Below, piece by piece: positions 9,401 to 33,957 of a stretch of 34,391 nucleotides of DNA (position 1 is the stretch's first letter; each line of letters starts with the position of its first letter). The position numbers and the translations under genes were made by a program. The DNA comes from a virus. Lineage: Duplodnaviria; Heunggongvirae; Uroviricota; Caudoviricetes. The stretch lies in the IMG/VR virus record IMGVR_UViG_2645727673_000011, positions 1 through 34,391 of that record; one strand, 5' to 3'. Under the pieces are notes generated by a model. The model searched no databases. It was not told the DNA's origin and saw only the letters and a program-made list of their open reading frames with translations.

Positions 9401-10338
9401 TTTATGTTGAAATAGGTAATTTCGCCACGGGTGTAAATATCCAGTGGGATTATACCAGTATTGGTGATATTGAAGCATCGGAGGGCATGGGGGCGCTGAA
9501 ACTCTTCCTTTCGCGAGCGTTTAATCCTAACGGCAATATTCTCCCTGGCATTATTGGTGAGGCTAAAAAGTATGTCAGCGAAGAAGAACTTGAGCATCTT
9601 GACCAACTACTTAAGCGATTCTCATATAACCCGCAGACACGCTGGCAAATGAATCAGCGAAGTATGGGTTCGGTCCACGAGAAAGTGTTATCTGCCATGA
9701 ACAGTGCGATCGCAAACTCATCCGTATCTGAAGAAAAAGCTCTTGAGTGGGCCGACTCTTTTATCACGGAAGAAGTGGAAGAAGCCCGCGCTGGACAGAA
9801 TGGTGGGATAGACCTGCGCAAGGAACTTGCTGATATTTATCGCCTGACCGGCGGTAAAATTTCGACCTTATCAAAGGTGGTTCACCACCAGGGAAGGGCA
9901 TATGCAAATCTTAATGGTGTTGTTGCTGTCAATTTGAACGATGAAAATGCAAGTGCACTGTGGCACGAGCTGGGTCATCATCTTGAGTACAGTAACCCTG
10001 GTTTGTTAGAGAAAGCCCGGTCATTCCTGAAGGCCAATGTTGAAGGGGATAAGCCATCTTTCGTTAATATCGGTGGGCGTGGCAAGCCTGAATGGTGCTT
10101 CAGATCTCGATTGAGTAATATTTATATGGCGAAGGTATACCCGCCAGCCTCAGTAAGTAACACCGGGAAAATTCGGCAGAAATCACCGACTATTTCCAAA
10201 ACGTCAGCAACGGAAGTATTCTCTATGGCTCTTCAGTTGTATCATGACAAAGAGGCCGCTGCCGCATCACTGATGAATGGTGACGGATTGCTGGAACTGT
10301 TATTAGGTGTGGCAAAGGAGCTAAATAATGCGGATTAA
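6403..10338 (+). CDS. S: Tail fibre protein S: P1/Mu-like constant N-terminal part joined to a divergent C-terminal part
   Basis: ATG at 6403 (MNDVTVVTSVTYPSPESLALVADVQYHEPYL...) with AAGGA upstream; this is in frame with the longer track ORF that starts inside R. Contains the TGTPTAPTAAQGTNSTQIANTAFV motif twice and five copies of a ~40-aa fibre repeat (ATKLQTARTIGGVSFDGSANI). Ends NNAD* at 10338. Confidence 0.85.
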   Translation: MNDVTVVTSVTYPSPESLALVADVQYHEPYLSAALNRKFRGIVDPGFYAGFFPKPGGGMNLLITSVDGDKTAGAASVNIGEFYQVTIQQRKDISLALSAGKKYAIVLKGRYLLGEDSYQVNTASHIHAAEFVARTYTDSYQLGDGELLVCTVNIPAGVSAITKEMIDVSDRIDLTIGIEISDSVTSTRSDVAASSLAVKKAYDLAKSKYTAQDASTTQKGLVQLSSATNSDSETMAATPKAVKSVKELADTKAPIESPSLTGTPTAPTAAQGTNSTQIANTAFVKAAITALINGAPGTLDTLKEIAAAINNDPNFSTTINNALALKAPLASPALTGIPTAPTAAQGTNNTQIATTAYVRAAISALVGSSPEALDTLNELAAALGNDPNFATTMTNALAGKQPLDATLTALAGLATGANKLPYFTGTDTVSQTDLTSVGRDILAKTSTLAVIQYLGLREIGTSGEKIPLLSTANTWSSQQTFKGKTAFSAAATFSAGIAGAIEPEAIDGRTIDLNDLIIANTEAGSVKYYQCKTVAGGANITNKPDGVSGNFLVRVESIRKTTGSDYANMQTLINSDTKRIYVRFVVNGNWTAWSQVVVSGWGQDVSVKSLSAVALSGSLTGNASTATKLQTARTIGGVSFDGSANIDLPGVNKAGNQSTTGNAATATKLQTVRTIGGVSFDGSANIDLPGVNKAGNQSTTGNAATATKLQTARTINGVKFDGSANISIPTITSRGRVTALTDTTQGAATGLQMYEAYNNSYPTAYGNVLHMKGASAAGEGELLIGWSGTSGAHAPVFIRSRRDHTDAAWSAWAQVYTSRDSIPGVNATGNQNTTGNAATATKLQTARTIGGVSFDGTANINLPGVNVAGNQNTSGNAATATKLQTARTINGVSFDGSKNIELTPRSIGTINSTTMSFSGGAGWFKLATVTMPQASSVVYISLIGSSGYNVNSPMQAGISELVLRAGNGNPKGLTGALWRRTSVGFTNFAWVNTSGDTYDVYVEIGNFATGVNIQWDYTSIGDIEASEGMGALKLFLSRAFNPNGNILPGIIGEAKKYVSEEELEHLDQLLKRFSYNPQTRWQMNQRSMGSVHEKVLSAMNSAIANSSVSEEKALEWADSFITEEVEEARAGQNGGIDLRKELADIYRLTGGKISTLSKVVHHQGRAYANLNGVVAVNLNDENASALWHELGHHLEYSNPGLLEKARSFLKANVEGDKPSFVNIGGRGKPEWCFRSRLSNIYMAKVYPPASVSNTGKIRQKSPTISKTSATEVFSMALQLYHDKEAAAASLMNGDGLLELLLGVAKELNNAD
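7751..7776 (+). other. cix/gix/hix-like DNA-invertase crossover site at the constant/variable junction of S
   Basis: ttatccaataccttggtttaagagaa; its reverse complement TTCTCTTAAACCAAGGTATTGGATAA matches the Hin hixL site TTCTTGAAAACCAAGGTTTTTGATAA (recalled from memory) at 21 of 26 positions. It encodes the VIQYLGLRE junction. Confidence 0.5.
8281..8520 (+). repeat. Two tandem copies of a 120-bp in-frame repeat inside S (about 95% identical); a third diverged copy follows at 8521 and two more at about 8890-9120
   Basis: Direct comparison of 8281-8400 with 8401-8520 shows about 6 mismatches in 120 bp. Each unit encodes a 40-aa repeat ending TGNAATATK. Confidence 0.85.
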
Positions 10339-10642
10339 AATCGCAGCGCCATTAGGCGGAGATGCCATTATCGAATTTGATGATAATGAAGAAGTTTCCG
10401 GGCGTTTAAGCATTATCTCCGGTGACATTACCGAGGACATGATCGCTGAAGCCATAGCAGGGGCAAATCCCAATAGCTATATGGGATTCGTTAACACCCT
10501 TGATGCTCCCGCAAGTGATGTTCTCCGAACGCTGCATCTTTACGCTGGCTGGTTTGTTGATTGGCCAGCAGTAGATGGTGGCGATGATGACGACGACGAC
10601 GACGATGATTTTGGTGATCATGTAGACCAGATCGTATATTAA
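10328..10642 (+). CDS. Small highly acidic protein with a poly-Asp tract, translationally coupled to the tail-fibre gene
   Basis: ATG at 10328 lies 9 nt after AAGGAG (10313-10318) and overlaps the last codons of S. The 104-aa product has about 24 acidic residues and a run of nine Asp. Confidence 0.6.
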   Translation: MRIKIAAPLGGDAIIEFDDNEEVSGRLSIISGDITEDMIAEAIAGANPNSYMGFVNTLDAPASDVLRTLHLYAGWFVDWPAVDGGDDDDDDDDDFGDHVDQIVY

Positions 10643-10707
10643 CTCCCTGATTGTGCACAAATAATCTGTTCTGATATGTTAATTGTGTACTTAAAGTAAA
10701 CGCGTAG

Positions 10708-10746
10708 TGGCTTGCTTTAGGTTATGGAAGCAAGCCATTTCCTATT
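10708..10746. terminator. Hairpin between the convergent tail-fibre operon (+) and the 201-aa gene (-); likely bidirectional terminator
   Basis: tggcttgctt (10708-10717) pairs with aagcaagcca (10728-10737) as a 10-bp stem with a 10-nt loop, followed by tttcctatt. Confidence 0.5.
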
Positions 10747-10754
10747 AAAGTAGA

Positions 10755-11360
10755 TCAAAAAACTTTAATTTTGGCGTTTCGCTCACCACATATTGAGCAC
10801 TTTAGCCGATTTTTTAAGTCTTCCAGAGTCAATCCTGAAGCTACATATTGTTTAATGTCTCTTTGAGAGAGTATCACTGGTTCACGGAACCTATAACCGC
10901 CGCAGAGATGTATTATCATTATCTCAGAATCATTTTCTAACCAGTCATTAAGAGTGTTGTGTGGTTTAGAAAGTCGCTCAATATCCAAACGCCATTGTTG
11001 GATTTCATTACTGTCCCAGTCGAGATTTAGTTTAGCACGTTGGGCAACGAACCGATGTTTTCCTCTGTTAATACTAGGTTCGTAGTCTTTTCGTTGATCG
11101 GTAGTAAGGTCCTCTTCGTATAGAAATGAATCATCGTTTTTATGAGTGGGTTCAAAAATTACTTCAATAAAACTTGGCTCATACGCGTTAAAGCTTTTTT
11201 TTCTTATGAATATCCCTTGTGTACCACTCCCGTTTAAATCAGCACAAAAATTAACATCTATTCCTCGACGAAGTGCGAAAAAATAGCTATGTTCCCTCAT
11301 GGCCACAGCTAATTTGGCTATATCTATAAGGTTGTGTATTTTATCAGAATATGTATTCAT
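10755..11360 (-). CDS. Hypothetical protein encoded by an AT-rich, probably horizontally acquired gene
   Basis: 201 aa from the ATG at 11360 (MNTYSDKIHNL...) preceded by GGAAG; the track start at 11375 is TTG. Local GC is about 33% by hand count of 10801-10860. I recognise no domain. Confidence 0.6.
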   Translation of the reverse strand: MNTYSDKIHNLIDIAKLAVAMREHSYFFALRRGIDVNFCADLNGSGTQGIFIRKKSFNAYEPSFIEVIFEPTHKNDDSFLYEEDLTTDQRKDYEPSINRGKHRFVAQRAKLNLDWDSNEIQQWRLDIERLSKPHNTLNDWLENDSEIMIIHLCGGYRFREPVILSQRDIKQYVASGLTLEDLKNRLKCSICGERNAKIKVF

Positions 11361-11541
11361 GAGGCTTCCAAGCAAATATCATGACAAGCATAAAGTGTTA
11401 AAGTAATGTTACGCATCTTAACAAAGTGACTCTTGATTAATTTTAATTCGCCCTATCTTGCTTGTCTAACCATCATTGCATATACAGAGGGCAAAGAATT
11501 ACACTTCATGTAATTTATTTCCCTTTAATTTCGTATTATCA

Positions 11542-11568
11542 GGGTGCTCTCTGGCACCCCTTTTTATT
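11542..11568 (+). terminator. Intrinsic terminator-like hairpin with a T tract on the plus strand
   Basis: gggtgc-tctctg-gcaccc followed by cTTTTTaTT. It lies just past the stop of the 264-aa minus-strand gene and would stop plus-strand read-through. Confidence 0.5.
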
Positions 11569-11578
11569 CTAGTAAAAA

Positions 11579-12373
11579 TTAATCACTTTCCACCTCTTCC
11601 GTGGTGTTTTCTTGCAGCTCTGCCAATGCAGTACGACACAGGTTCCTAGCATTGGCTATAGCCACACTTTTGACTTCATCCGTCATCGTGCAGGTAATGT
11701 ACTGATCGAGTTCTTCAGCGCGGATGATGCTTTTGCCAATCAGAAACTGTATTTGCCAGAGCAGATCGGCATCCATCATCAGAATTTCTGCCGAGCCTTC
11801 AGGGCCAGCCGGGAAGGAAACATAAGACTGTTTGCCCATGCCGATAACTCGACAACTTGCTTCAAGAATTGCGCGCTTGAGGTCTGACTTTGTAACGGAA
11901 ACAGGTTGGTTTTCACCAGTGATTATGCCGTTGACATGGAAGTGGAAGGGCATGTAGCTTGAAATACGCTCTACTTTCCACACGCCAGCAAGCGATCCTT
12001 CATGCAGCACAATGGGGGTAACCGCGAGTTTCATCTCACCATATAACTGCTGGCAGATAGCTGGATTGCTGAATACATCCAAAGGTTCACACTCAAACAG
12101 CGGCGCAATCTGTATGAGGTCCATCATGGTCATACCAGGGGTACGAGCAGTAATGAATCTGCGCATGCCAGTATCCATTGTGCGCCAGATAGCTACACCA
12201 TGCTTTTTGCTCACTTCTTCAGTAAAGCCAAGGTGGCACATGATGGTTTTTTCGATAGCCAGATCAGAGATCGAAACCTTTTCGCCAGGTACACCATCAT
12301 TATTGATGGTCACTTCTACACTCTGGCCATTACGCAGGCGGTATTGAATGGTTTTAGTATTTTGTGCTGTCAT
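11579..12373 (-). CDS. Hypothetical protein, 264 aa, acidic C-terminus
   Basis: ATG at 12373; backbone-like GC; no recognisable motif. Sits where the darA/lyd/cin block lies in P1 as I recall it. Confidence 0.6.
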   Translation of the reverse strand: MTAQNTKTIQYRLRNGQSVEVTINNDGVPGEKVSISDLAIEKTIMCHLGFTEEVSKKHGVAIWRTMDTGMRRFITARTPGMTMMDLIQIAPLFECEPLDVFSNPAICQQLYGEMKLAVTPIVLHEGSLAGVWKVERISSYMPFHFHVNGIITGENQPVSVTKSDLKRAILEASCRVIGMGKQSYVSFPAGPEGSAEILMMDADLLWQIQFLIGKSIIRAEELDQYITCTMTDEVKSVAIANARNLCRTALAELQENTTEEVESD

Positions 12374-12387
12374 AGTCTTTTCTCTGC

Positions 12388-12570
12388 TTAAAAACTGATG
12401 TATTGCGCCTTCAGGTTGGTTAGGAATGTTTTCCCACCAGCGAAAGCAATATCTCGGGGTGTTCTATTCGTTAAAAGCGCGTGCCATTGCCAACTTTGGC
12501 GTTTGTTTGCGAGTTCGTGCTTTTGTCGGCGTCTTGACCACCGCTTTTCTTTCAGTCGTTTTTTACTCAT
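12388..12570 (-). CDS. Possible small basic protein (60 aa, Lys/Arg-rich N-terminus)
   Basis: ATG at 12570, 6 nt downstream of the ssb stop. Ribosome-binding site is weak, so this may be spurious. Confidence 0.3.
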   Translation of the reverse strand: MSKKRLKEKRWSRRRQKHELANKRQSWQWHALLTNRTPRDIAFAGGKTFLTNLKAQYISF

Positions 12571-12575
12571 AAACT

Positions 12576-13064
12576 CTAAAACGGAATATCGTCGTCAAAG
12601 TCCATTGGAGGTTCGTTATTGGCGTTGCTCTGAGGTTTACCGCCACCACTGTATTGCTGGTGGTTTTGAGGTTGGTTCGATTGCCCCCAGCCATTTGAGG
12701 ACTGTGAATCGTCACGGCGAGCGCCGATCATTTGCATGGTGCCGCCCTGGCTGACGATAATTTCCGTCGTGTAACGTTCTACACCGGCGTCATCTGTCCA
12801 CTTACGGGTTTTAAGTTTCCCTTCGATGTAGACCTGAGAACCTTTTCGTAAATACTCACTCGCAATTTCAGCAAGTTTCCCGAACAAAACGACTCTATGC
12901 CATTCTGTTTGCTCTTTCTGTTGGCCCGTTTGCTTGTCGCGCCATGATTCATTTGTTGCGATGCTTAGTCTTCCGACCGCTCCGCCATTTGGTATATACC
13001 TGATCTCCGGGTCTTGCCCCAGGGTACCAATCAGGATGACTTTGTTTACACCGCGTTGTGCCAC
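12576..13064 (-). CDS. ssb: Single-stranded DNA-binding protein
   Basis: Product is recognisably SSB ([25 protein letters not shown] ... [14 protein letters not shown]) with the acidic tail DFDDDIPF. Start is GTG at 13064, directly after an in-frame stop. Confidence 0.9.
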
Positions 13065-13083
13065 TTATCTTACCTAATAAAAT

Positions 13084-13100
13084 AAAATGATTAGAGCAAT
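13084..13100 (-). promoter_or_regulatory. Candidate P1 C1 repressor operator upstream of ssb, in the ssb/lyz divergent intergenic region
   Basis: Minus-strand sequence ATTGCTCTAATCATTTT matches the 17-bp C1 operator consensus ATTGCTCTAATAAATTT (recalled from memory) at 15 of 17 positions. Confidence 0.4.
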
Positions 13101-13232
13101 AATGTATATCTTTGAAACGTAGCTAACAAGTGATTTGCATTATCCTGTGCCTTCTAAAGGGATCGAGTCAGTCGGTATTGGCTGTGAATGGGTGTTTGTC
13201 CTGGAGCGTAAAAATTCGCTTATGAGGTCTTT

Positions 13233-13790
13233 ATGAAGGGAAAAACAGCCGCAGGAGGCGGTGCAATTTGCGCTATCGCGGTGATGATTACCATCGTAAT
13301 GGGTAATGGCAATGTGCGAACCAACCAGGCGGGGCTTGAGCTGATTGGTAACGCTGAAGGTTGCCGACGTGATCCATACATGTGCCCGGCGGGGGTATGG
13401 ACTGACGGGATCGGTAATACACACGGGGTAACGCCGGGTGTGCGAAAAACCGACCAGCAAATCGCCGCTGATTGGGAAAAGAATATCCTGATCGCTGAAC
13501 GCTGTATTAATCAGCACTTCCGGGGCAAAGACATGCCCGATAATGCCTTTAGTGCAATGACAAGCGCGGCATTCAATATGGGATGCAATAGCTTACGGAC
13601 CTACTACAGCAAAGCGCGAGGCATGCGAGTCGAAACGTCCATCCACAAGTGGGCGCAGAAAGGGGAATGGGTGAATATGTGTAACCATCTCCCTGATTTT
13701 GTGAACAGTAACGGCGTGCCCCTGCGAGGTTTAAAGATTCGCCGTGAAAAAGAACGCCAGCTTTGCCTGACGGGACTGGTCAATGAATAA
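13233..13790 (+). CDS. lyz: SAR endolysin (T4-lysozyme family), P1 Lyz-like
   Basis: 185 aa, ATG at 13233 after GAGG. Gly/Ala-rich signal-anchor N-terminus (AAGGGAICAIAVMITIVMG) followed by the catalytic region NAEGCRRDPYMCPAGVWTDGIGNT. Confidence 0.9.
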   Translation: MKGKTAAGGGAICAIAVMITIVMGNGNVRTNQAGLELIGNAEGCRRDPYMCPAGVWTDGIGNTHGVTPGVRKTDQQIAADWEKNILIAERCINQHFRGKDMPDNAFSAMTSAAFNMGCNSLRTYYSKARGMRVETSIHKWAQKGEWVNMCNHLPDFVNSNGVPLRGLKIRREKERQLCLTGLVNE

Positions 13791-14037
13791 ACTCCGGCAG
13801 CTCCGCAGACTTTCGACAATGAAGTTATCGCTGGCAGCGATAGTTTTCGACTCGATTTTCATGGCGGTATATGTGCTTAATGAAACGTGGCCACTGGAAC
13901 CGCTATTGTATGCCGGGCTTCGGCTGTGCCTGACATTTTTGAGCATGGCCGCGAGATTGATGCAGCAGAAAGAAACCGCTTCAGATTGTCCACGCCGCGC
14001 GGTGCGCAAATATATGGCACGCAGGCGAAGTCGATAA
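13783..14037 (+). CDS. Small membrane protein coupled to lyz; possible lysis accessory protein
   Basis: ATG at 13783 overlaps the 3' end of lyz by 8 nt. The 84-aa product has hydrophobic segments (LSLAAIVFDSIFMAVYVL and LLYAGLRLCLTFLSMAA) and a basic C-terminus. Confidence 0.45.
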   Translation: MNKLRQLRRLSTMKLSLAAIVFDSIFMAVYVLNETWPLEPLLYAGLRLCLTFLSMAARLMQQKETASDCPRRAVRKYMARRRSR

Positions 14038-14048
14038 TAGTTAACGAG

Positions 14049-14078
14049 AACCCCGGCACTCGCCGGGGTTATTTTTGG
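14049..14078 (+). terminator. Intrinsic terminator between the lyz operon (+) and pro (-)
   Basis: aaccccggc-actc-gccggggtt forms a 9-bp GC-rich stem and is followed by aTTTTTgg. Confidence 0.6.
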
Positions 14079-14081
14079 TGG

Positions 14082-16812
<2,731 letters not shown>

Positions 16813-16879
16813 TTAATTAGAATAATTCGCATCGTGTTTGAACGGAAATTTAACACTAGTCACTTGTTAAGGATTACCA

Positions 16880-19800
16880 ATGAACAAGCTATATATGCGG
16901 GTGTTTCGCTGTTCAAGTGTCAGCGAAATATTGAAATACATTAGGGCAATAACATCTCACCGAGCGCCGATTAAATACGGCGTGGAAAAGGTGGAAGGCA
17001 AAAGCTATGACCGACTGCGCCGGGAGGCGAATCAGAAGGCGATAGATTTGCTTAATTCGCTGGTGGACGGCGCGACACTGACAGATGAACAGCGCCAGAT
17101 CCTGGCTGGGTACACCGGTGAAGGCGGCATTGGCGGGTCCGTCTCCGAATATTACACACCAAAGCCGATCGCTGAAGGTGTCTGGGAGATCATGAAGCTC
17201 TACGGCGCGGACGTAGGTAACACTCTGGAACCATCGGCGGGAACCGGCGTTTTTAATGAGACAAAACCGGTTGGTACGGTGATGACCGCGACTGAGATCA
17301 GCAGTGTTTCCGGTCGTATAAACCAGTTGTTACACCCGGAAGACAGCGTACAGATTTCCCCGTTCGAACAGCTGGCTATAAGCACGCCTAACGATTCATT
17401 CGACCATGTTGTGGGTAACGTTCCGTTCGGCGGTCGTGATAACACACGCAACATCGATAAGCCTTACGCAGAAGAAACGGACATGGGTTCTTACTTCATG
17501 CTCCGCATGCTGGACAAGATAAAGCCAGGCGGATTCATGTGCGTGATTGTGCCGCCGTCCATTGTTTCAGGTTCAAACATGAAGCGGTTACGCCTGCGCT
17601 TATCCCGTAAAGCTGAATTTCTTGGCGCTCACCGCTTGCCTACCGGTACTTTTGACGCAAACGGGACCAGTACAGTCGTTGATGTGGTGCTGATGCGCAA
17701 ACATCCGGCGGAGATGGCTGAGAAAATCCCCCTGGTGGATGAAGGTACTCTTGAATCGGCAAATGTGCTTTGGCCAACGTTTATTTCTGGCAAGTGGTTT
17801 GAAAAGGACGGCCGCCGGTTTGTTCATGGCACTCAGGAGAAGGGATTCCAGGGGCGTATTGAGGTTCGTGCCGACGGGCAGATTGATAACCAGGCTCTTA
17901 AAGCGAAGCTGATTCATCGTTTCGAAAGTCGTATCGACTGGTCTTTGCTCGATATGGCTGAACCGTCACCGACCGCAGATGTTGTTGATGAAGGGGAAAT
18001 GCGCCTGATTAATGGCGTATGGCAAAAATATGCTGGTGGTCGCTGGATTGAAGCTGATGCCGGGAAGGAGCTGAAGATTGATGTTGCCAGTTATGGCGCG
18101 GATAGCTGGGAGGCTCTTCAGCGTAACCTGACTACCACAGAAGGTCGTCTCGGCATGACATTTACCCAGATGGCAAATGTCCGCGATAAGTACACCACAT
18201 CAATCAGCGACGATATGGTGCAGTTGGTGGACTGGATTAACAGCCAACCTGAAAAATACCGTGAACGCTTGTATCGCGGAGCGATGATTGGCCGGATGTT
18301 AATTGAATATCAGGACATGAAGGCCGCCGGGCATAGTGCTGAACAAATCGAACAGCAGCGCCTTTCTCTGGTATCCCGTTTGCAGGCAGAGATTGACCGT
18401 TTTGGTAACCCCGGTCGCGGTCCGATAGCGAAATTATCGGGGAGCGGTGCGCGCGCCTGGTTTGCTTTCCGTGGTGCAATTAAGCTGGATGGCACTATTT
18501 CTGACGAGCTGACAGGAAAGCTGGTTACGCATGATTCCAGCGCCAGTTATGACTCCACCAGCTATCAGGACACCCTGCGTTATCTCTATAGCGATCTTAC
18601 CCGCGATCCAATCCAGCTCGATGATTTCCGCCTTGCGTTTACCGGCGAACTGCCAGCCAGTGATGAAGAGTTGCTTAATTTATTGGCCAGCACCCCTGGT
18701 ATTGCGGTTTCACCGTATGGCGGGATTGTTCCGTTCGCCCGCGCCACCAGCGGCGACATTAACGAGATAGTGGCTCCAAAACAGGAATTCCTTGCCACAC
18801 TCCCCGACGGTCCAGTAAAAAACAACGTCCTTAATCAGCTGGCAGCGATCGAAGAGAAGCGCATCAAGACGCCAGCAGAGAATATCCGCTTTAAGCTCAA
18901 TAGCCGTTGGTTCGACCGCTCCGTCATTCTGGAGTTTTTGCAGGAAAACGGCTATCCGGATCTGCGCTATGTGCAGTCAGTGCAGCTGGAAGGCGACGAA
19001 ATGGTTTCTGACACCTATCACGGTGGTGATGGTCTGTTCGTCGGGCACCGATACGGTGTCGTCCAGCGCAAGGATAAAGAAACAGGCGAGATCCGCTACG
19101 AGTGGGACCGTAAATCAGGTGAAAACGCGACCGGGTTCCCGGCACAGCTGGAAAAGTATCTCAATGGTGCGCGTATCGGTGGCAAAGATAGCGCGACGGC
19201 GAACGGCTACCGCGAGCAGATGGCACTGCTTGAGGACCAGTTCAATAAGTGGATCAAGACGCACGATCGCTACGATGAGCTGGTTGCCAAATACAACGAT
19301 GTGTTCAATAGCAATATCCCGTATGAACACTCTGGCGATCCGCTTGGGTTGAAGGGATTAAGCGGTAAGCGCCAGCCATTTGATTACCAGAATAGCGAGG
19401 TGCGCCGACTGTCCGAAGATGGGCGCGGCATCCTGGGCTTTGGCACCGGGCTGGGTAAAACCACGACCGCGCTGGCGCTTGAGGCGTTCAACTATGAGAA
19501 CGGTCGCTCTACCCGTACTGCGTATGTAGTGCCTAAATCAGTGCTGGAAAATTGGTATTACGAAACAAAAGAATTCCTGAGTGAAGAGGCATTCAGTAAC
19601 TACCTGTTCGTCGGTCTTGATGTGCTGATGGATGGCGATCAGATTCGCCAGGTGCCGGTGCTCGATGAGAACGGTAAACCTGTTCTTGGTACTGATGGCA
19701 CTCCAGTTATGCGCGATGCTCTTAAGCTGGCAGATGAAGCCACTATCACGGCGCGGATGAACGCGATCCCGCACTCAAATTACCGTGCAGTCGTGTTTAC

Positions 19801-22800
19801 CAAAGAACAATACGCCCGCATTCCGCTACGTGATGACACCATAGATGAGCATGCACAGGATATGCTTTATGACTTCGTTGCCGCCGGGCGCGTAGCCAGT
19901 GCAATGGATTCCGACTCCCACCGCAAAGAGGCCGCGCGTCGCCGGGTATTGTCGGAGTATTCAGATACCGGTACCGAAAAAGCAGAGAAGTATCCGTACT
20001 TTGAGGATATGGGCTTCGACAGCGTGATTGCTGACGAAGGCCACAACTACCGCAATTGCTATAAAAATGGTCGCGAAGCGTCACAACTGGCCTATCTGCC
20101 CACCAGCGCGGTGGCGCAATCGGCGCGAGATATGGCAATTAAAAACGCGTACCTGATGAAAAAGAATGGCGGGCGCGGGCCGGTTCTCCTGACTGCAACG
20201 CCAGTCGTTAACACCCCGATCGATGCATACAACATGCTTTCTCATGTTCTGCCGAAGGAATACTGGCAGAACATGGGGATCTACGGTCCTGATGACTTCG
20301 TTAAATTCTTCGGCAAGACCAGGCTGGAAACGGTACAGAAAATCAGCGGTGAAGTTGAAGAAAAAATGGCGCTGGTGGGCTTTGAAAACCTTGATGCGCT
20401 GCGCGGTATATTCCATCGCTGGGTAACGCTTAAAACGGCGGAAGACGTTAAGGATACCGTGGAGATCCCGGAGCTGGACGAACACCAGCAGGATGCACCA
20501 CTTACTGAAGAACAACTGGCGGCGTATGAAGAATTGCGTCAGCAGGCGGAAGCGGCGGCCAAAGCCAACAATGGCGTAACGACCTCGGTCAATGAAGACG
20601 GCGTGATTGAGCACGAGAAAGCCCGTCCGATCTTCTCAATAATCAGGGATATGGACCGCGTATGTACTGACATGGACCTGTACTATCGCCGGATCACCTA
20701 TCGTTTCCTGCCGGAGTACGCCGATGCGGTGCAGCAGCTGGCGGACAGTTTGCCTAAACAAGCCACCAGCGAAGACGACGACAGTGATGATTCAATCACG
20801 CAGCAATCGCAATACTCCCTGATAGATAAGGGCGAGTTTATTCAGTTGCAGGTTCCGGAAGCGTTCGAGCAGGAAGTGAATAAGCGCCTGGCCAGGTTTG
20901 GCATTGACGAACAGACCGTAACTCACCCCGTTACGCCGAAATACGCGAAGCTGATCGCCACGCTGAAGGAGTTTTTCCCGGAAGGTAAGCAAATCATCTT
21001 CACCGATGAAAAAACGAAGCACCAGAAGCTCAAGCGCATTATCTGCAATGCTCTAAACCTTGAACCTTCAAAGGTGGGGATCCTGAATGCTCAGACGGTT
21101 GCCGAGGCAGGTAAAACCGGTAAGAAACTGAAAGCGGTTAAACCGCCGAAAGAGCTACCGGATGAACCAACAGATGCACAGATAGCGAAATACAACGAGC
21201 AAATGGCTCTGTATGACGCCTATATCGCGCAGCAAAATGAAATGTCGTTGGGCGGTCTGGAAAAGATTGCAGCCGACTTCCAGGAGGGCCGGACTCCGAT
21301 CATCATCTGCAACAAAAAGGCAGAGGTGGGTATCAACCTGCATCGAGGAACGACGGATATCCACCACCTGACGTTGCCGTGGACACCAGCCAGTATCGCA
21401 CAGCGTAACGGTCGCGGTGCCCGAGTTGGTTCCAACCGTGCAAGCGTTCGCGTTCACTACTACTGCGGCAAGGGGTCTTTCGATGAATACCGACTGAAGA
21501 CGCTGAAGCGTAAAGCAGGCTGGATCTCCGATATCCTCCGTTCAGATAAGTCAGAAATGGAGAACGCCGATGCCAATGACATGATCGAAATGCAGATGTA
21601 TACCGCGAAGGATGACGGCGAACGTCTGGCAATGATGCAGGTTCAAATGGATAAGGCGAAAGCTGCGAAACGCGCTCGCCAGAAAGAACAGGCTACTATC
21701 GACCTTCAGAACTACATCAAGGCGCAGCACGCAGCTGGCGAGGATGTGGAGGTACTTACCGCTGAATTAGAGCGAAGCAAAGCGGAACTTGAAAAGACCA
21801 CCGTCGAGGTAGCTAAATTCAAACAGGCGGCAATGGCCAAGGCAGCGGATAACGCAGACTGGAAGGCCCGCTGGGGGAGTGTCCATCACACAGACCGTAT
21901 GTTGTTAGCACAGTATCGCGCGTCGTTGAAAAGCGCCATTCAGCGCAAGGCTAATATCTCTCAGGCCATCTCCCGCTATGAGAAATTATTGAACCGTACT
22001 CAGAAGGCCGCGACGGATATCAAACGCCTGCGCCCGCTGATGGAGGATGCAATAAATAAAGGCATTCTGGATATTGATCCTGACATGGTTAACCATGCGA
22101 GTGAGTTCCTTGTTATCGGCGATCGCTCATGGCGTGTAGGCCAATACTACGATTGTGCCGGTGATATCGTTCGCATTAAGTCGCTGGACTTCGACAGCCA
22201 GCGCGCAGACGTGGAGATCATCTTCACCTTCAAAGGCACCAAATCTGGTAATTGGGATGTGAAGACGCTGGATAAACAGGTTGATGTAACTCCTGATGAA
22301 GATGCTGTTATGCAGAAAATCAGTGGTGGCGTCTCCATCGCCGGGATTAACGACATCATTTCCTGTGACGATTTCTACCGTTTCCGGCAGCGCGGCATGA
22401 TCAAAATCACTGACTCATACGGCGTTCAGACTACAGAGTCAGGCTATAGCATTGATTTTGTTGGTACCTATACGGACCCACTGAAGCATGCGGTTTACCC
22501 GGATCGCCGTGACGGCGCGCTGAAGTCGTCAATTGCAAAATGGGTGCTTGGTATGATGTCGGAAGGGAATAACCGCCAGATCCGTTCGGCAGAAACATTC
22601 CTGGTTGAATTGTTTGGCTCCAATTATGGCGATGTAATCGCGTCATACGGAGATACGCTATCCCCTGAAGTAATTCAGGAGAAAATAGCGGATGCGATCG
22701 CAAAAATGCCGGAGAAAACAAGCCAGGGGGCTACTCGTAACGGGGATTCTGAACTTGAGGTCACCAATGCCATTTTCGGTACCCATGAGTTCCGGGCGTC

Positions 22801-23647
22801 AGATTATGAGATCACCACAGCACAGTTTGGCACCATTGGCATTTACAGCAATAAAGCCGAGATCAAGCAGGCAATGGACGCAGCAAGCGCGCGCATCGCA
22901 GCAGAACGGGAAGCCAATCTGAATCATGCAGTCGCCGCACTGACTCAATCGTGGGTAACAGCAATCAGGGAGGCCGCCACCACAGGGAAAATCACACCTG
23001 CAATTGCGGATGTCGTAAACGACGGCTCTAAATTTATGGATGCCTATCAAATGGATGCGGTGCAGTTGCCATCAGCCTATGGCCAATTCAGCTATCGCAT
23101 GACCTACAACCTGGTATCAATGTTTTCCGACCTTGCCATCCTTGGGCTGGTGGATCTTAACGAGGTTACGCCGGAATTGCTCAGCATGCGCAAGAATCAT
23201 GTGGAGATATTGCAGAGAATTAACACGGTTCTTGCCGGGCGCACCGATGAAGAGAAACAGGCCGACGCTGATCGGATAAACCTGGCCCTTGGCAACATCA
23301 CGGAGGAAGAAATTGCCGCCAGAAACGAGAAACAAGAAGAGTTATCATCAATACAGGGTGATGCCACCAGCATAGCTCAGTCTCTTGGTCTGAATTATCG
23401 CGTATCCACCGCCGACCTGAAGATGATGTACGCACCAAAATTCGCCGCTGGCGAGGTATTTGGGCTTCAGGAAGCCTCAGGCATGAAAGGCGTTCTTTTC
23501 CGTGCGAAAGACGCAATCAAGGCGAAATTCGGCGCTCGCTGGCTGCCAGCGAAGGCGAAGAACAGCGATTTCCCGGGTAACTGGTGGATTATCGAGACAA
23601 AACACAACGTGGCGGACGTTCTGGCCGTCATCCAACAATACGCATAA
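16880..23647 (+). CDS. darB: DarB antirestriction protein: N-terminal N6-adenine methyltransferase-like domain plus DExH helicase domain
   Basis: 2255 aa, the length I recall for P1 DarB. Methyltransferase-like motif HVVGNVPFGG; helicase Walker A GFGTGLGKTT and motif II IADEGHNYRN. Confidence 0.9.
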   Translation: MNKLYMRVFRCSSVSEILKYIRAITSHRAPIKYGVEKVEGKSYDRLRREANQKAIDLLNSLVDGATLTDEQRQILAGYTGEGGIGGSVSEYYTPKPIAEGVWEIMKLYGADVGNTLEPSAGTGVFNETKPVGTVMTATEISSVSGRINQLLHPEDSVQISPFEQLAISTPNDSFDHVVGNVPFGGRDNTRNIDKPYAEETDMGSYFMLRMLDKIKPGGFMCVIVPPSIVSGSNMKRLRLRLSRKAEFLGAHRLPTGTFDANGTSTVVDVVLMRKHPAEMAEKIPLVDEGTLESANVLWPTFISGKWFEKDGRRFVHGTQEKGFQGRIEVRADGQIDNQALKAKLIHRFESRIDWSLLDMAEPSPTADVVDEGEMRLINGVWQKYAGGRWIEADAGKELKIDVASYGADSWEALQRNLTTTEGRLGMTFTQMANVRDKYTTSISDDMVQLVDWINSQPEKYRERLYRGAMIGRMLIEYQDMKAAGHSAEQIEQQRLSLVSRLQAEIDRFGNPGRGPIAKLSGSGARAWFAFRGAIKLDGTISDELTGKLVTHDSSASYDSTSYQDTLRYLYSDLTRDPIQLDDFRLAFTGELPASDEELLNLLASTPGIAVSPYGGIVPFARATSGDINEIVAPKQEFLATLPDGPVKNNVLNQLAAIEEKRIKTPAENIRFKLNSRWFDRSVILEFLQENGYPDLRYVQSVQLEGDEMVSDTYHGGDGLFVGHRYGVVQRKDKETGEIRYEWDRKSGENATGFPAQLEKYLNGARIGGKDSATANGYREQMALLEDQFNKWIKTHDRYDELVAKYNDVFNSNIPYEHSGDPLGLKGLSGKRQPFDYQNSEVRRLSEDGRGILGFGTGLGKTTTALALEAFNYENGRSTRTAYVVPKSVLENWYYETKEFLSEEAFSNYLFVGLDVLMDGDQIRQVPVLDENGKPVLGTDGTPVMRDALKLADEATITARMNAIPHSNYRAVVFTKEQYARIPLRDDTIDEHAQDMLYDFVAAGRVASAMDSDSHRKEAARRRVLSEYSDTGTEKAEKYPYFEDMGFDSVIADEGHNYRNCYKNGREASQLAYLPTSAVAQSARDMAIKNAYLMKKNGGRGPVLLTATPVVNTPIDAYNMLSHVLPKEYWQNMGIYGPDDFVKFFGKTRLETVQKISGEVEEKMALVGFENLDALRGIFHRWVTLKTAEDVKDTVEIPELDEHQQDAPLTEEQLAAYEELRQQAEAAAKANNGVTTSVNEDGVIEHEKARPIFSIIRDMDRVCTDMDLYYRRITYRFLPEYADAVQQLADSLPKQATSEDDDSDDSITQQSQYSLIDKGEFIQLQVPEAFEQEVNKRLARFGIDEQTVTHPVTPKYAKLIATLKEFFPEGKQIIFTDEKTKHQKLKRIICNALNLEPSKVGILNAQTVAEAGKTGKKLKAVKPPKELPDEPTDAQIAKYNEQMALYDAYIAQQNEMSLGGLEKIAADFQEGRTPIIICNKKAEVGINLHRGTTDIHHLTLPWTPASIAQRNGRGARVGSNRASVRVHYYCGKGSFDEYRLKTLKRKAGWISDILRSDKSEMENADANDMIEMQMYTAKDDGERLAMMQVQMDKAKAAKRARQKEQATIDLQNYIKAQHAAGEDVEVLTAELERSKAELEKTTVEVAKFKQAAMAKAADNADWKARWGSVHHTDRMLLAQYRASLKSAIQRKANISQAISRYEKLLNRTQKAATDIKRLRPLMEDAINKGILDIDPDMVNHASEFLVIGDRSWRVGQYYDCAGDIVRIKSLDFDSQRADVEIIFTFKGTKSGNWDVKTLDKQVDVTPDEDAVMQKISGGVSIAGINDIISCDDFYRFRQRGMIKITDSYGVQTTESGYSIDFVGTYTDPLKHAVYPDRRDGALKSSIAKWVLGMMSEGNNRQIRSAETFLVELFGSNYGDVIASYGDTLSPEVIQEKIADAIAKMPEKTSQGATRNGDSELEVTNAIFGTHEFRASDYEITTAQFGTIGIYSNKAEIKQAMDAASARIAAEREANLNHAVAALTQSWVTAIREAATTGKITPAIADVVNDGSKFMDAYQMDAVQLPSAYGQFSYRMTYNLVSMFSDLAILGLVDLNEVTPELLSMRKNHVEILQRINTVLAGRTDEEKQADADRINLALGNITEEEIAARNEKQEELSSIQGDATSIAQSLGLNYRVSTADLKMMYAPKFAAGEVFGLQEASGMKGVLFRAKDAIKAKFGARWLPAKAKNSDFPGNWWIIETKHNVADVLAVIQQYA

Positions 23648-23653
23648 CAGGAG

Positions 23654-23671
23654 CGCCCGGTTCGCCGGGCG
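23654..23671 (+). other. GC-rich hairpin between darB and ulx
   Basis: cgcccgg-ttcg-ccgggcg forms a 7-bp all-GC stem with no U tract; possible RNA stability or attenuation element. Confidence 0.3.
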
Positions 23672-23680
23672 TCGCATAAT

Positions 23681-24121
23681 ATGGCCACACTATCTGATAC
23701 AATAAAACCGAATAAAACATATCTTGAGGCGGTACTCCGTACAGCGTTGTTAGGAAAGACAGAAGACGAATACGTTGATTTCTTCCTGTCAGGGCTACGC
23801 GGGCGATTACTGAAAAATCCCCGCCTGTACCGCAGCTATGGTCCATACTGGCCGGAAATTAAAAAATTATTACTGGAGCGCGGTTATGGTAATTTCGGTC
23901 GTCTCGTTGACCGTGACGTTCGCAAAATTTACCGTTATGACCGCCCGGCGCTGACGCTCATAGCCGCGACGCTCTACAGCCAGGAGCGTTTTGATAATGG
24001 TCAGATATACTCAGCCTGGCATTTACTGCCAGTACCTGAAGAGGTTGACGACCAGGACTATGAGTTTGAGTCTTACGATTTGGAAGTTGAAGCCTTAGCA
24101 CAGGCTGGAGAGAAAACTTGA
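23681..24121 (+). CDS. ulx: Ulx-like protein of unknown function
   Basis: 146-aa ORF with ATG at 23681 immediately after darB. Named by position only. Confidence 0.55.
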   Translation: MATLSDTIKPNKTYLEAVLRTALLGKTEDEYVDFFLSGLRGRLLKNPRLYRSYGPYWPEIKKLLLERGYGNFGRLVDRDVRKIYRYDRPALTLIAATLYSQERFDNGQIYSAWHLLPVPEEVDDQDYEFESYDLEVEALAQAGEKT

Positions 24122-24366
24122 AAAAGCGATACTACACAGTAAAGCATGGGACGCTACGAGCATTACAAGAGTTTGCTGATAAGCATAACGTTGAGGTGCG
24201 CAGGGAGGGGGGAAGTAAAGCTCTGCGCATGTACCGTCCGGACGGGAAATGGCGTACGGTCGTCGATTTCAAAACTAACAGCGTTCCCCAGGGCGTCCGC
24301 GATCGGGCATTCGAAGAATGGGAGCAGATCATCATAGATAATGCATTGCTTCTCAATGCGGATTAA
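24118..24366 (+). CDS. lxc: Lxc-like small protein (in P1, a modulator of C1 repressor)
   Basis: 82-aa ORF starting at TTG 24118, overlapping the ulx stop and preceded by GGAGAG. No in-frame ATG nearby. Named by position only. Confidence 0.45.
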   Translation: MKKRYYTVKHGTLRALQEFADKHNVEVRREGGSKALRMYRPDGKWRTVVDFKTNSVPQGVRDRAFEEWEQIIIDNALLLNAD

Positions 24367-24525
24367 ACTTCCCCAAATAATGGCTGTTTGCTCGCCGAGC
24401 ATCGCTCAAAGAAACACGATTATTCAAACATATAGATAGTGATAGTGCCCTCGTATAAGTGTGACAACTTCTGGCTCTAGTGGGCTGGGGAGGCGGCGCT
24501 TTGTTGCTAAATGATCTGGTTTAAA

Positions 24526-26466
24526 ATGGATATGAAAAAAGAAACGATTTTTTCCGAAGTAGAAACGGCTAACAGCAAGCAACTGGCTGTGTTGAAAGCT
24601 AATTTCCCTCAGTGTTTTGATAAAAACGGAGCCTTCATTCAAGAAAAATTGCTTGAGATTATTAGGGCATCGGAAGTTGAACTCTCTAAAGAATCATACA
24701 GCTTGAACTGGCTGGGTAAATCTTATGCCCGTTTGTTGGCCAATCTACCACCGAAAACGTTGTTGGCAGAAGATAAAACTCATAACCAACAAGAAGAGAA
24801 CAAGAACAGTCAACACCTGTTAATCAAAGGGGATAATCTCGAAGTATTGAAGCATATGGTTAATGCTTACGCTGAAAAGGTGAAGATGATTTACATTGAC
24901 CCACCATACAATACAGGTAAGGATGGGTTCGTTTATAATGATGATCGCAAATTTACACCTGAGCAGCTTTCTGAACTAGCAGGCATCGACCTCGATGAGG
25001 CTAAACGCATATTAGAATTTACCACCAAGGGGTCAAGCAGTCATAGTGCATGGCTGACATTCATTTACCCACGCCTTTATATTGCTCGTGAATTAATGAG
25101 AGAAGACGGGACTATTTTTATTTCTATTGACCATAATGAGTTCAGTCAATTAAAACTAGTTTGCGACGAGATCTTTGGTGAGCAAAACCATGTTGGGGAT
25201 CTAGTATGGAAAAATGCAACTGATAACAACCCTTCAAATATCGCTGTAGAGCATGAATATATTATTGTTTACACAAAAAACAAAGAGCAGCTTATAAGTG
25301 AGTGGAAATCTAATATCTCCGATGTAAAAAACTTACTTGTCAACATAGGTGAAGAATTTGCATCAAAATACACTGGCAATGAACTTCAGGAAAAATATAC
25401 CCAGTGGTTTCGTGAACACAGATCTGAATTATGGCCTCTTGACCGATACAAATATATAGACAAAGACGGCATCTATACTGGTAGTCAGAGCGTCCACAAC
25501 CCCGGAAAAGAGGGTTACAGATATGATATTATACATCCAAAAACTAAGAAGCCATGCAAACAACCTCTTATGGGATATCGTTTTCCATTAGATACAATGG
25601 ATAGGCTTCTGTCTGAAGAAAAGATCATCTTCGGTGATGATGAAAACAAAATTATAGAACTAAAAGTTTATGCTAAGGATTACAAACAGAAATTAAGCTC
25701 CGTTATCCATCTTGATGGGCGTGTTGCAACGAACGAACTTAAAGAGCTGTTCCCAGAAATGACTCAACCATTCACAAATGCTAAAACTATAAAATTAGTA
25801 GAAGATTTAATATCTTTTGCATGTGATGGAGAGGGTATTGTTTTGGATTTTTTTGCTGGGTCAGGAACTACAGCGCATACAGTTTTTAATTTGAATAACA
25901 AAAATAAAACGTCGTATCAGTTTATTACAGTTCAACTAGATGAACCTACAAAAGATAAATCTGATGCCATGAAGCATGGCTATAATACAATATTTGACTT
26001 AACAAAGGAGCGTTTAATTAGGGCGTCTAAAAAAAATAGGGATCAGGGGTTTAAGGTATATCAACTAATGCCAGATTTTCGCGCTAAAGACGAATCAGAA
26101 CTTACACTGTCTAATCATACATTCTTTGATGATGTTGTCTTGACGCCTGAACAATATGACACTCTATTAACTACATGGTGCCTGTATGATGGCAGTTTGC
26201 TAACAACACCTATTGAAGATGTTGATCTTGGTGGCTACAAAGCACATTTGTGCGATGGTCGTCTGTATTTGATTGCACCTAATTTTACTAGCGAAGCATT
26301 GAAAGCGTTACTTCAAAAGGTGGATTCAGACAAAGACTTTGCTCCAAACAAAGTCGTGTTTTATGGCAGCAATTTTGAAAGCGCAAAGCAAATGGAACTC
26401 AATGAAGCACTAAAAAGTTATGCTAATAAAAAATCTATTGAGTTAGATTTGGTGGTGAGGAACTAA
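24526..26466 (+). CDS. mod: Type III restriction-modification methyltransferase (Mod), EcoP1I-like
   Basis: N6-adenine methyltransferase motifs DPPYNTG and FFAGSGTTAH. In-frame ATGs at 24511, 24526 and 24532; I chose 24526 because it gives 646 aa, the length I recall for P1 Mod. Confidence 0.85.
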   Translation: MDMKKETIFSEVETANSKQLAVLKANFPQCFDKNGAFIQEKLLEIIRASEVELSKESYSLNWLGKSYARLLANLPPKTLLAEDKTHNQQEENKNSQHLLIKGDNLEVLKHMVNAYAEKVKMIYIDPPYNTGKDGFVYNDDRKFTPEQLSELAGIDLDEAKRILEFTTKGSSSHSAWLTFIYPRLYIARELMREDGTIFISIDHNEFSQLKLVCDEIFGEQNHVGDLVWKNATDNNPSNIAVEHEYIIVYTKNKEQLISEWKSNISDVKNLLVNIGEEFASKYTGNELQEKYTQWFREHRSELWPLDRYKYIDKDGIYTGSQSVHNPGKEGYRYDIIHPKTKKPCKQPLMGYRFPLDTMDRLLSEEKIIFGDDENKIIELKVYAKDYKQKLSSVIHLDGRVATNELKELFPEMTQPFTNAKTIKLVEDLISFACDGEGIVLDFFAGSGTTAHTVFNLNNKNKTSYQFITVQLDEPTKDKSDAMKHGYNTIFDLTKERLIRASKKNRDQGFKVYQLMPDFRAKDESELTLSNHTFFDDVVLTPEQYDTLLTTWCLYDGSLLTTPIEDVDLGGYKAHLCDGRLYLIAPNFTSEALKALLQKVDSDKDFAPNKVVFYGSNFESAKQMELNEALKSYANKKSIELDLVVRN

Positions 26467-26468
26467 TC

Positions 26469-29381: not shown

Positions 29382-29391
29382 TTCTAGTTTA

Positions 29392-29416
29392 AAAGGAGGT
29401 GAAAACCTCCTTTTTT
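29392..29416. terminator. Bidirectional intrinsic terminator between convergent res (+) and mat (-)
   Basis: aaaggaggt-gaaa-acctccttt followed by TTTTTT on the plus strand; the complement also carries a short U tract. Confidence 0.65.
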
Positions 29417-29455
29417 GACATCCTACACGACCTGAAAGAAGTGGCGTTTAGGCCG

Positions 29456-30097
29456 TTAAAAATAGTTCCCCTCTCCAGTTAAGATTCCATGAGGAACTCT
29501 TTTTTCTGCAAGTCTCTGTGTGCCCCGAATTATGTTAATGAGAGGGTTTAGTAACGATGGTTCCTGGTGTGCCTCAACTTCTCCAGCCATTGCCCTGATG
29601 TAGTCGTCGCTGGCAACGTTGTTGTATTCCGTCGCAAAGCAACATAGTAACGTCAGAACATGCTCTGTCGTTATTTCGCTCCAGTTGATGTTGAAAAATT
29701 CATCGCCTTTTTTGTCATGTTCGGAATCGAAGATGCTTTGGTGGAGGATGTATTTGCCGGATTCCTTGCGCGGTAACTTGATCGCTTTCTGGCGTTCCAA
29801 TTCCTTGTAAATCTGCATTGCTTCAATCAGTACCGGTCTGCCGTTCATGAAGGGATCACGCAACCTTACACGCTGGCCAACTCGACCGGTAATAAAGCTG
29901 TTTTCCTCTTCCACCAGCACGATAAAACCCTTTTCCTCTTTTTCTCGCAATTCGCGCAGCAGTTGGAGTTCCATATCGCGGCGGCGTTCAGGGTAGCTGG
30001 TCCGCTCAGCCATTATCAGCTCATTGTTGATCCATGCGGCAGTCATTGACGCCGGTTTGCCGACGCTCATCGAAACAACGCATATTTTCTTATCCAT
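29456..30097 (-). CDS. mat: Mat-like protein (P1 maturation control); function uncertain
   Basis: 213 aa from the ATG at 30097 (MDKKICVVSM...) with AAGGGG upstream. The longer track ORF runs through an upstream terminator hairpin. Named by position between res and ref. Confidence 0.5.
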   Translation of the reverse strand: MDKKICVVSMSVGKPASMTAAWINNELIMAERTSYPERRRDMELQLLRELREKEEKGFIVLVEEENSFITGRVGQRVRLRDPFMNGRPVLIEAMQIYKELERQKAIKLPRKESGKYILHQSIFDSEHDKKGDEFFNINWSEITTEHVLTLLCCFATEYNNVASDDYIRAMAGEVEAHQEPSLLNPLINIIRGTQRLAEKRVPHGILTGEGNYF

Positions 30098-30105
30098 AGC
30101 GCCCC

Positions 30106-30136
30106 TTATAAAAAAGAAAAGCCACCAGCGGCGGCT
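30106..30136 (-). terminator. Minus-strand terminator-like hairpin downstream of ref and just upstream of the mat start
   Basis: Minus-strand RNA agccgcc-gcu-gguggcu (7-bp stem with one G-U pair) followed by uuuucuuuuuu. Confidence 0.45.
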
Positions 30137-30286
30137 TAGCAATACAACTGAAGGTAGCGCCCGGTACTCAGACTGTGCCGTCCATGGAATATTTGAAAAG
30201 GGATCCATCCGTACCGGGCATGTGATGATTCTGACTGAAGTCACTTGTCAGTTGTCAATTATTTCAGATTAAAAATAATATATTTA

Positions 30287-30847: not shown

Positions 30848-30955
30848 ATGGCAAAAAAAAGGCGGCCTGATGGCCGCCAATGATGTCAAGGAGTTAAGTA
30901 ATGGCAACGTCTTCGTAGTTGACAAAAACTGCGGCTCAATTATAGCAACCAATTA

Positions 30956-30993
30956 GGGGTCGTCTCAGAAAACGGAAAATAAAGCACGCTAAG
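30956..30993. repeat. 38-bp terminal inverted repeat of a Tn21-subgroup Tn3-family transposon (tnpA-proximal end)
   Basis: GGGGTCGTCTCAGAAAACGGAAAATAAAGCACGCTAAG; the tnpA stop codon lies inside it, as is usual for Tn3-family elements. Confidence 0.8.
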
Positions 30994-33955: not shown

Positions 33956-33957
33956 AT

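Follow-up and report, generated by a model that had tools for sequence, protein, structure and literature searches.

What can have become of the lysis and Dar genes in a P1-like phage-plasmid in which a mere 2.2 kb separate a long, fibre-like gene from ssb? The question is raised by IMG/VR virus record IMGVR_UViG_2645727673_000011 (Caudoviricetes), which we analysed over a stretch of 34,391 nucleotides, referred to here as the window. In it, the interval runs from the stop of a long plus-strand open reading frame (ORF) at 10338 to the stop of ssb at 12576. An original prediction, made from the letters of the sequence, had held that a newly acquired, undescribed defence or counter-defence cassette had here replaced U, the invertible C segment, cin, lydAB and the darA operon between the fibre gene S and ssb. 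Our analysis leads to a different answer, to which we give a probability of about nine in ten: the interval is the hxr-isaB-isaA backbone of P1, made to look compact by an 8,289-bp deletion.

Identity of the interval

What are the ORFs between 10338 and 12576? With the insertion sequence IS1 of P1 excepted, window positions 9459-25092 run collinear to the P1 genome, and the identity is 97.8%. In a megablast search against phage records, P1 covered window 9459-13800 at this identity, accounting for 90% of the query in two pieces split by IS1. Direct alignment resolved the same break into two blocks, window 9459-11493 corresponding to 14001-16028 of the P1 locus (L001) and window 11485-25092 to 16797-30384, with the 768-bp gap between the blocks being IS1. 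The two blocks overlap by exactly 9 bp (11485-11493), the IS1 target, duplicated in P1 and single in the window, as it would be before an insertion. The IS1 between isaB and isaA is a trait of the sequenced P1 strains and not of the family; with IS1 left out, the ddrB-ssb interval of P1 also measures about 2.2 kb.

The encoded proteins tell the same story. The acidic ORF and the two minus-strand ORFs of 201 and 264 aa, which the original prediction had listed correctly, encode Hxr, IsaB and IsaA with 98 of 102, 199 of 201 and 256 of 264 residues identical to P1 (96-99%), and each matches a PHROG family over its full length: hxr (P1 gp021; 10328..10642, plus strand; 104 aa) phrog_2292 with E 1.9e-60, isaB (P1 gp020; 10755..11360 from its ATG, minus strand; 201 aa) phrog_30162 with E 4.4e-145, and isaA (P1 gp017; 11579..12373, minus strand; 264 aa) phrog_2326 with E 4.2e-149. 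All three families are without known function. With collinear P1 DNA and full-length orthologous proteins in agreement, the three ORFs are P1's own hxr, isaB and isaA, in P1 order and on P1 strands, and the interval is ordinary P1 backbone in an IS1-free form of the isaA-IS1-isaB region; no observation speaks against this identification. Genes, order, strands and the PisaB region are alike in the corresponding P1 segment (NC_005856.1, about 21,540-24,552), from which the window differs by the absence of IS1. In pMB3362_2 (NZ_CP103706.1), a P1-like IncY phage-plasmid of Escherichia coli, the hxr-isaB-isaA-ssb interval is 100% identical to that of the window.

A deletion fusing the fibre gene to ddrB

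If the interval is of ordinary length, why does it look compact? The answer lies in the long ORF to its left (6403..10338, plus strand), which from its ATG encodes a chimeric protein of 1311 aa: S-like fibre residues 1-1019 are fused in frame to DdrB residues 704-995. From 9460 on, its last 292 codons correspond to residues 704-995 of the 995 in phrog_2299 (DdrB), with E 2.9e-171, and this retained C-terminal part of DdrB includes a HELGHH zincin metallopeptidase motif (9964-9981). The length of 2.2 kb given in the original prediction therefore stands, whereas its reading as an S-to-ssb interval does not: it is the interval from ddrB to ssb, in its IS1-free form, and not the place where P1 carries U to darA.

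The nearest relative, pMB3362_2, matches the window with 99.9% identity on the left as far as 9460 and on the right from 9450, and between the two matches 8,289 bp of pMB3362_2 are missing. At the junction (9459..9460), ...GGGATTATACCAGTA is followed directly by TTGGTGATATTG..., where the parental sequences read ...TTATACCAGTA followed by ACGCC... in the fibre gene and ...GTTAACCAGGTTA followed by TTGGTG... in ddrB. A TA dinucleotide at the crossover is common to both parents and lies within an imperfect ACCAG(N0-2)TA microhomology. Missing from the window are the last 457 codons of the 1515-aa fibre gene of pMB3362_2 and a partial tail-fibre-assembly gene (a U remnant); a frameshifted recombinase (cin) remnant, a lydC-like ORF, lydA and lydB; and hdf, darA, ddrA and the first 703 codons of ddrB. 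Of the Dar operon (lydA-lydB-hdf-darA-ddrA-ddrB), only DdrB residues 704-995 are left. The deleted segment was not found elsewhere in the window, which rules out transposition of the missing genes to another site within it.

What makes the interval look compact is thus an 8,289-bp deletion, relative to pMB3362_2, that joined the fibre gene to ddrB codon 704. The displacing cassette envisaged originally had in its favour the shortness of the interval, the absence from the window of the expected P1 genes, and the low GC content and flanking hairpins of isaB. Yet all three ORFs are P1 genes in P1 order, a deletion with ends inside the fibre gene and ddrB, whose last 292 codons are still fused to the fibre gene, accounts for the missing genes, and no PADLOC model matches. 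The condition that the original prediction had set for its own rejection, conserved P1 genes in the arrangement of P1, is what the comparison shows. We regard replacement by a new cassette as scarcely credible. Nor is the module undescribed, as hxr, isaB and isaA stand in their P1 arrangement and the locus has been published.

Could the junction be an artefact of assembly, the true plasmid having the intact arrangement of pMB3362_2? The fibre gene contains tandem repeats of 120 bp (40 aa) at about 8256-8580, of which pMB3362_2 has one unit more than the window. Such repeats can mislead short-read assembly, and the shortfall of one unit in the window could be seen in this light, as could the fact that the junction occurs in no complete genome and no PLSDB plasmid. 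However, the sequences that meet at the junction are both unique, have only few bases in common and lie outside the repeats, and the fusion keeps the frame. Moreover, the identical 1311-aa fusion protein is found on four public contigs from at least two samples, including NCBI assembly GCA_014878395.1, and the contigs carry the same hxr-isaB-isaA-ssb genes downstream. Given these contigs, and given a comparable deletion in a complete plasmid, pCAVP819_2, we consider an assembly or chimeric-join artefact very improbable.

Some points nevertheless weigh against the deletion. The junction was not found in PLSDB, in 5,426 complete E. coli genomes, in IMG/VR or in the metagenomes of the Joint Genome Institute (JGI); the deletion rests on few draft assemblies, which may be clonal; and recombination at random microhomology does not predict that the left endpoint is shared with another deletion and has an IS1 end nearby.

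How the deletion arose

The last of these points bears on the mechanism. In the complete plasmid pCAVP819_2 (position 9561 of locus L004), a deletion joins the fibre gene to darA, with a left endpoint identical to that of the window and a 2-bp TA overlap. In NZ_CP100530.1 (locus L021, about 3002), the same stretch of the fibre gene borders on an end of IS1A, 5-6 bp off the window endpoint. Three independent rearrangements thus end within 6 bp of one position in the fibre gene (window 9460), a site across which 232 of 249 records are continuous.

Does this clustering betray a site-specific or transposase-type activity, such as Cin at a secondary site or IS1, that cut at a preferred position in the fibre gene? 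The identical endpoint and TA overlap of the two deletions, the IS1A end close by and the uninterrupted state of the preferred site in most records would agree with it. The window also holds an orphan P1-type cix site inside the fibre gene (7754-7776), identical over 23 nt to P1 cixR and the only cix in the window, in which neither a cin gene nor a partner cix site was found. A cix-like 12-2-12 site with an AAACC-NN-GGTTT core was not found at the breakpoints, and this core is missing from all three partner sequences; a Cin-mediated deletion is rejected on this ground. Furthermore, the parental type has no more than a frameshifted remnant of cin, and neither deletion junction retains an insertion sequence. 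Thus, an activity of this kind appears unlikely to us, and the deletion probably arose by illegitimate, microhomology-mediated recombination rather than through Cin.

Consequences for the element

What would such a fusion mean for the element? DdrB has been proposed to be cut by its own C-terminal metallopeptidase domain, with a fragment of about 700 aa being packaged into the head (Iyer et al., PMC5512222). The breakpoint, at residue 703/704, falls on the edge of this proposed fragment, so that the whole peptidase domain stays on the truncated fibre. The ddrB remnant and hxr, left behind by the deletion, would now be transcribed from the late promoter of the fibre operon. Because of the in-frame deletion between fibre gene and ddrB, the element is most likely a defective phage-plasmid, one that is probably defective as a phage and maintained as a plasmid.

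P1-like phage-plasmids are known to decay into plasmids by gene loss (PMC10879196). As in the plasmids described there, a P1-like backbone has here lost tail and lysis functions and kept plasmid functions; unlike in those cases, the loss in the window is a single clean in-frame deletion, and it includes the darA operon. This also sets the element apart from those of a 2025 survey, in which the Dar system was present in every sequence of the P1/D6 group examined (10.1101/2025.09.12.675607). With its darA operon, its fibre tip and its main holin/antiholin pair gone, the element offers a clear example of a P1-like phage-plasmid decaying to a plasmid. More generally, compactness beside a long ORF can conceal an in-frame deletion fusion and is not to be taken as cargo replacement.

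The isaB unit and cargo turnover at the hxr-ssb locus

While the idea of a cassette that replaced the genes from U to darA has to be given up, part of it survives in another form. Homology of the window to two alternative alleles (loci L012 and L015) ends at 10640 and restarts at 11578/11579, delimiting a variable unit of 938 bp (10641..11578) that comprises a first hairpin, isaB, a promoter-like site, the IS1 target and a second hairpin. The low GC content noted originally holds, the value of about 33% for the 201-aa gene does not: it is 37.0% in the isaB coding sequence and 36.5% in the variable unit, compared with 48.5% in the window. GC stays at 35-39% across 10600-11650, and the lowest 300-nt segment has 35%.

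The two hairpins claimed to bracket the gene as terminators are both present and stable, and it is as terminators that they fare less well. Hairpin 1 (10708..10737), between the convergent hxr and isaB, is a perfect 10-bp inverted repeat with RNA folding energies of -18.7 kcal/mol on the plus and -14.1 kcal/mol on the minus strand. Hairpin 2 (11542..11569, plus strand; stem-loop at 11542-11559) has the form GGGTGCC-loop-GGCACCC, is followed by CTTTTTATTC, and has RNA energies of -11.8 and -12.0 kcal/mol. A scan with a consensus terminator called only the site at 11542, on the plus strand, and found three sites against 2.7 in shuffled sequences, which is no enrichment. With its U-tract on the plus strand, hairpin 2 faces antisense or read-through transcripts, not isaA. 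Upstream of isaB, a sigma-70-like promoter, TAGACA-17-TAAAAT (11440..11468, minus strand), matches the consensus at 10 of 12 positions, is identical in sequence to P1 and equals the predicted PisaB of the P1 record; promoter scans, like those for terminators, did not rise above shuffles.

On these features, isaB can be described as a self-contained low-GC unit with a putative promoter of its own and a hairpin on each side, present in some P1-like plasmids and absent from others. The insulated, acquired cassette of the original prediction is recognizable in this unit, its supposed status as a new arrival replacing U to darA is not. Phage morons and the defence hotspots of prophages and satellites, such as those of P2 and P4, follow a similar plan. 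Like them, the isaB unit has a promoter-like site, flanking hairpins, deviant GC content, conserved flanks and exchangeable cargo; unlike them, isaB matches no catalogued defence or anti-defence family.

How variable is the locus? Among PLSDB records, Hxr occurs in 502 and IsaA in 474, with a coverage of at least 80% in 457 of the latter. IsaB is present at full length in no more than 25, and in about 94 others only a relic of its last 36 codons is found. These roughly 94 P1-like plasmids, which match window 10643-10863, hold hairpin 1 together with the relic and no more of the gene, which suggests that isaB was ancestral there and was then partly overwritten. In an 'empty' allele, 31 bp lie between hxr and isaA. 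In others, the variable unit is replaced by a winged helix-turn-helix (wHTH) HipA-family kinase annotated YjjJ. Some plasmids, for instance that of locus L013, have a gene for a Tad2-like protein (PF11195, E 1.6e-22) in the spacer from isaA to ssb. In phage vB_EcoM-673R5, the entire isaB-isaA stretch is replaced by a dGTPase in two ORFs (PADLOC E 8.6e-87 and 4.4e-34) and a small ORF. Of these alternatives, the dGTPase is a defence gene, and the Tad2-like gene is of an anti-defence type. The turnover of cargo across P1-like phage-plasmids that had been anticipated is thus seen, and isaB is a minority cargo in a real turnover locus.

The variability of the locus is already published, and its genes have been in the P1 record since the first annotation. 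The isaA-IS1-isaB stretch has been described as a low-GC variable region under the names 'RD-2' (PMC6906374) and 'region 2' (PMC9603915); as far as these accounts of it go, it is the same locus, with isaB and isaA swapped for other ORFs such as a phosphohydrolase. Their passages on the region treat its variability as a matter of resistance-gene mobilisation and do not describe defence or anti-defence cargo of the dGTPase, Tad2-like or HipA-like kind. In P1-like phage-plasmids generally, dGTPase and Tad2 have been reported (2025 preprint, 10.1101/2025.09.12.675607).

IsaB and its relatives

What can be discerned about IsaB itself? The searches for remote homology and structure that had been suggested left it with a fold that has no match. 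Its AlphaFold2 model is confident (predicted local distance difference test (pLDDT) 85.9, predicted template modelling score (pTM) 0.81) and shows an alpha/beta fold of two N-terminal helices, a five-stranded sheet, further helices and a small Cys-rich C-terminal module (CxxC), for which no match was found in the PDB or BFVD. Relatives with 47-60% identity occur in Serratia, Aeromonas, Novosphingobium, Ferrovibrio, Roseicella and others. The family shares 31 invariant positions, among them DLNGSG, LYE.DL..D..KDYEP and the C-terminal CxxC, with many acidic and basic residues, including D41, E82, D88, K91, D92 and E94.

The genomic settings of these relatives are varied. The Serratia gene lies at a prophage end. 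In alphaproteobacterial integrative and conjugative elements (ICEs), the relatives are found near Toprim, YAcAr and DUF736 genes and a replication-partition module. Toprim_3, YAcAr and DUF736 mark the IsaB homologue regions of loci L008-L011 and L024. One such ICE has hipBA nearby and a large AAA_34 helicase upstream; in locus L024 (1-1688), the IsaB homologue region comes after a large AAA_34/Helicase_C_4 protein. DarB of P1 presumably carries AAA_34/Helicase_C_4 domains as well, and we take the layout of these ICEs to resemble an anti-defence leading region. The Aeromonas relative stands directly upstream of Septu PtuA/PtuB (E 2.9e-139 and 2.7e-86), and other occurrences adjoin a phospholipase D (PLD)-helicase with a DUF1156 protein and a Vsr-Dcm-Eco29kI restriction-modification system. 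Since the neighbours change from context to context, the relatives are best regarded as single genes; a two-gene system with a conserved partner is ruled out, as the neighbours differ in every context.

Does isaB then serve in conflicts between mobile elements? Its surroundings make a defence or counter-defence role plausible. That it is accessory cargo for such conflicts, expressed by the plasmid prophage and acting in defence/exclusion or in anti-defence, seems possible to us, with the odds somewhat against it. Slightly more doubtful, and offered tentatively, is the wider proposal that IsaB would be the founder of a single-gene family with an unmatched fold in defence/exclusion or anti-defence, mobile among alpha- and gammaproteobacterial phage-plasmids, ICEs and prophages, with hxr-ssb as a true hotspot. 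If it were true, this hotspot would count among its alleles a dGTPase, a Tad2-like protein and a wHTH-HipA kinase besides isaB.

Several observations count against such a role. The link through neighbourhood is circumstantial, drawn from about ten contexts. IsaB has no match in PADLOC, Pfam or NCBIfam, and of the four Cys that its family conserves, IsaB of P1 and of the window has only three. Its neighbour IsaA gave an AlphaFold2 model too poor for use (pLDDT 41). There is close to an even chance, in our estimate, that isaB has no part in such conflicts; it might then be a small regulator that binds nucleic acid, or a selfish passenger of a low-GC spacer prone to recombination. In line with this, many P1-like plasmids do without it, and isaB, like isaA and hxr, was scored non-essential for P1 plaque formation in a screen by CRISPR interference (CRISPRi; PMC10695390). 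However, 47-60% identity and 31 invariant positions across alpha- and gammaproteobacterial mobile elements argue for a selected activity, and isaB repeatedly adjoins defence or restriction-modification genes and shares its locus with dGTPase, Tad2-like and HipA-like cargo. Whatever its role, isaB is a tractable orphan, of 201 aa, with a confident, unmatched fold and conserved across bacterial classes on mobile elements. It is directly testable in the best-studied phage-plasmid, at a locus that it has in common with known defence and anti-defence genes.

Hxr, IsaA and the ssb side of the interval

On the function of P1 isaA, isaB and hxr, the literature found consists of annotation, descriptions of the variable region and the CRISPRi non-essentiality score, and the article on the P1 virion proteome was not seen to mention Hxr, IsaA or IsaB in its text. 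Together with a 60-aa basic ORF in the spacer between ssb and isaA (ORF60; 12388..12570, minus strand), the three proteins gave no PADLOC-DB v2.0.0 defence model at E<=1 and nothing significant in Pfam and NCBIfam scans.

Hxr is acidic, with an isoelectric point (pI) of 4.05 and nine Asp in a row (10583-10609). Because its gene overlaps the ddrB stop by 11 nt, hxr is probably translationally coupled and the last gene of the dar transcription unit. The label 'homolog of Xre' in the P1 record rests on 28% identity. Hxr shows no HTH_3/Xre domain; at E<=1, Pfam returned a chance-level OTU1_UBXL match alone (E 0.068), and NCBIfam returned none. As no helix-turn-helix domain is seen, the label finds no support here.

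IsaA, encoded downstream of ssb on the same strand, belongs to a small family, with 35 clusters among 1.84 billion representative proteins in an exhaustive HMMER search. Profile searches gave no PDB match, and scans of 20 relatives no Pfam domain. In the P1 annotation, IsaA starts at an upstream GTG and has 320 aa, whereas the extension contains a stop in the window and databases mostly list 264 aa; for both reasons, the start in P1 is probably over-extended. ORF60, which lies in another frame than this extension, may not be a gene. The spacer that contains it (12374-12575) is the insertion point of the Tad2-like gene in other plasmids (locus L013).

The right-hand anchor of the interval is ssb (12576..13064, minus strand). 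A C1-operator-like site at 13084-13100 matches P1 Ossb at 15 of 17 positions. Since the ssb promoters of P1 overlap a C1 operator that is conserved to this extent here, isaA may be derepressed together with ssb.

Other features of the window

Beyond the interval, the window carries an intact type III restriction-modification pair (24511-29381), Res and Mod, the latter with an EcoP15I-type C-terminal domain. Unlike in P1, no IS5 interrupts mod, which is only in part P1-like (86.8% identity over 530 bp). At the right end of the window (30287-34347), a gene for a Ref-like RecA-dependent nuclease precedes those of a Tn3-family transposase (988 aa) and a resolvase, suggesting that a transposon inserted itself close to the ref/cre end of the P1 map.

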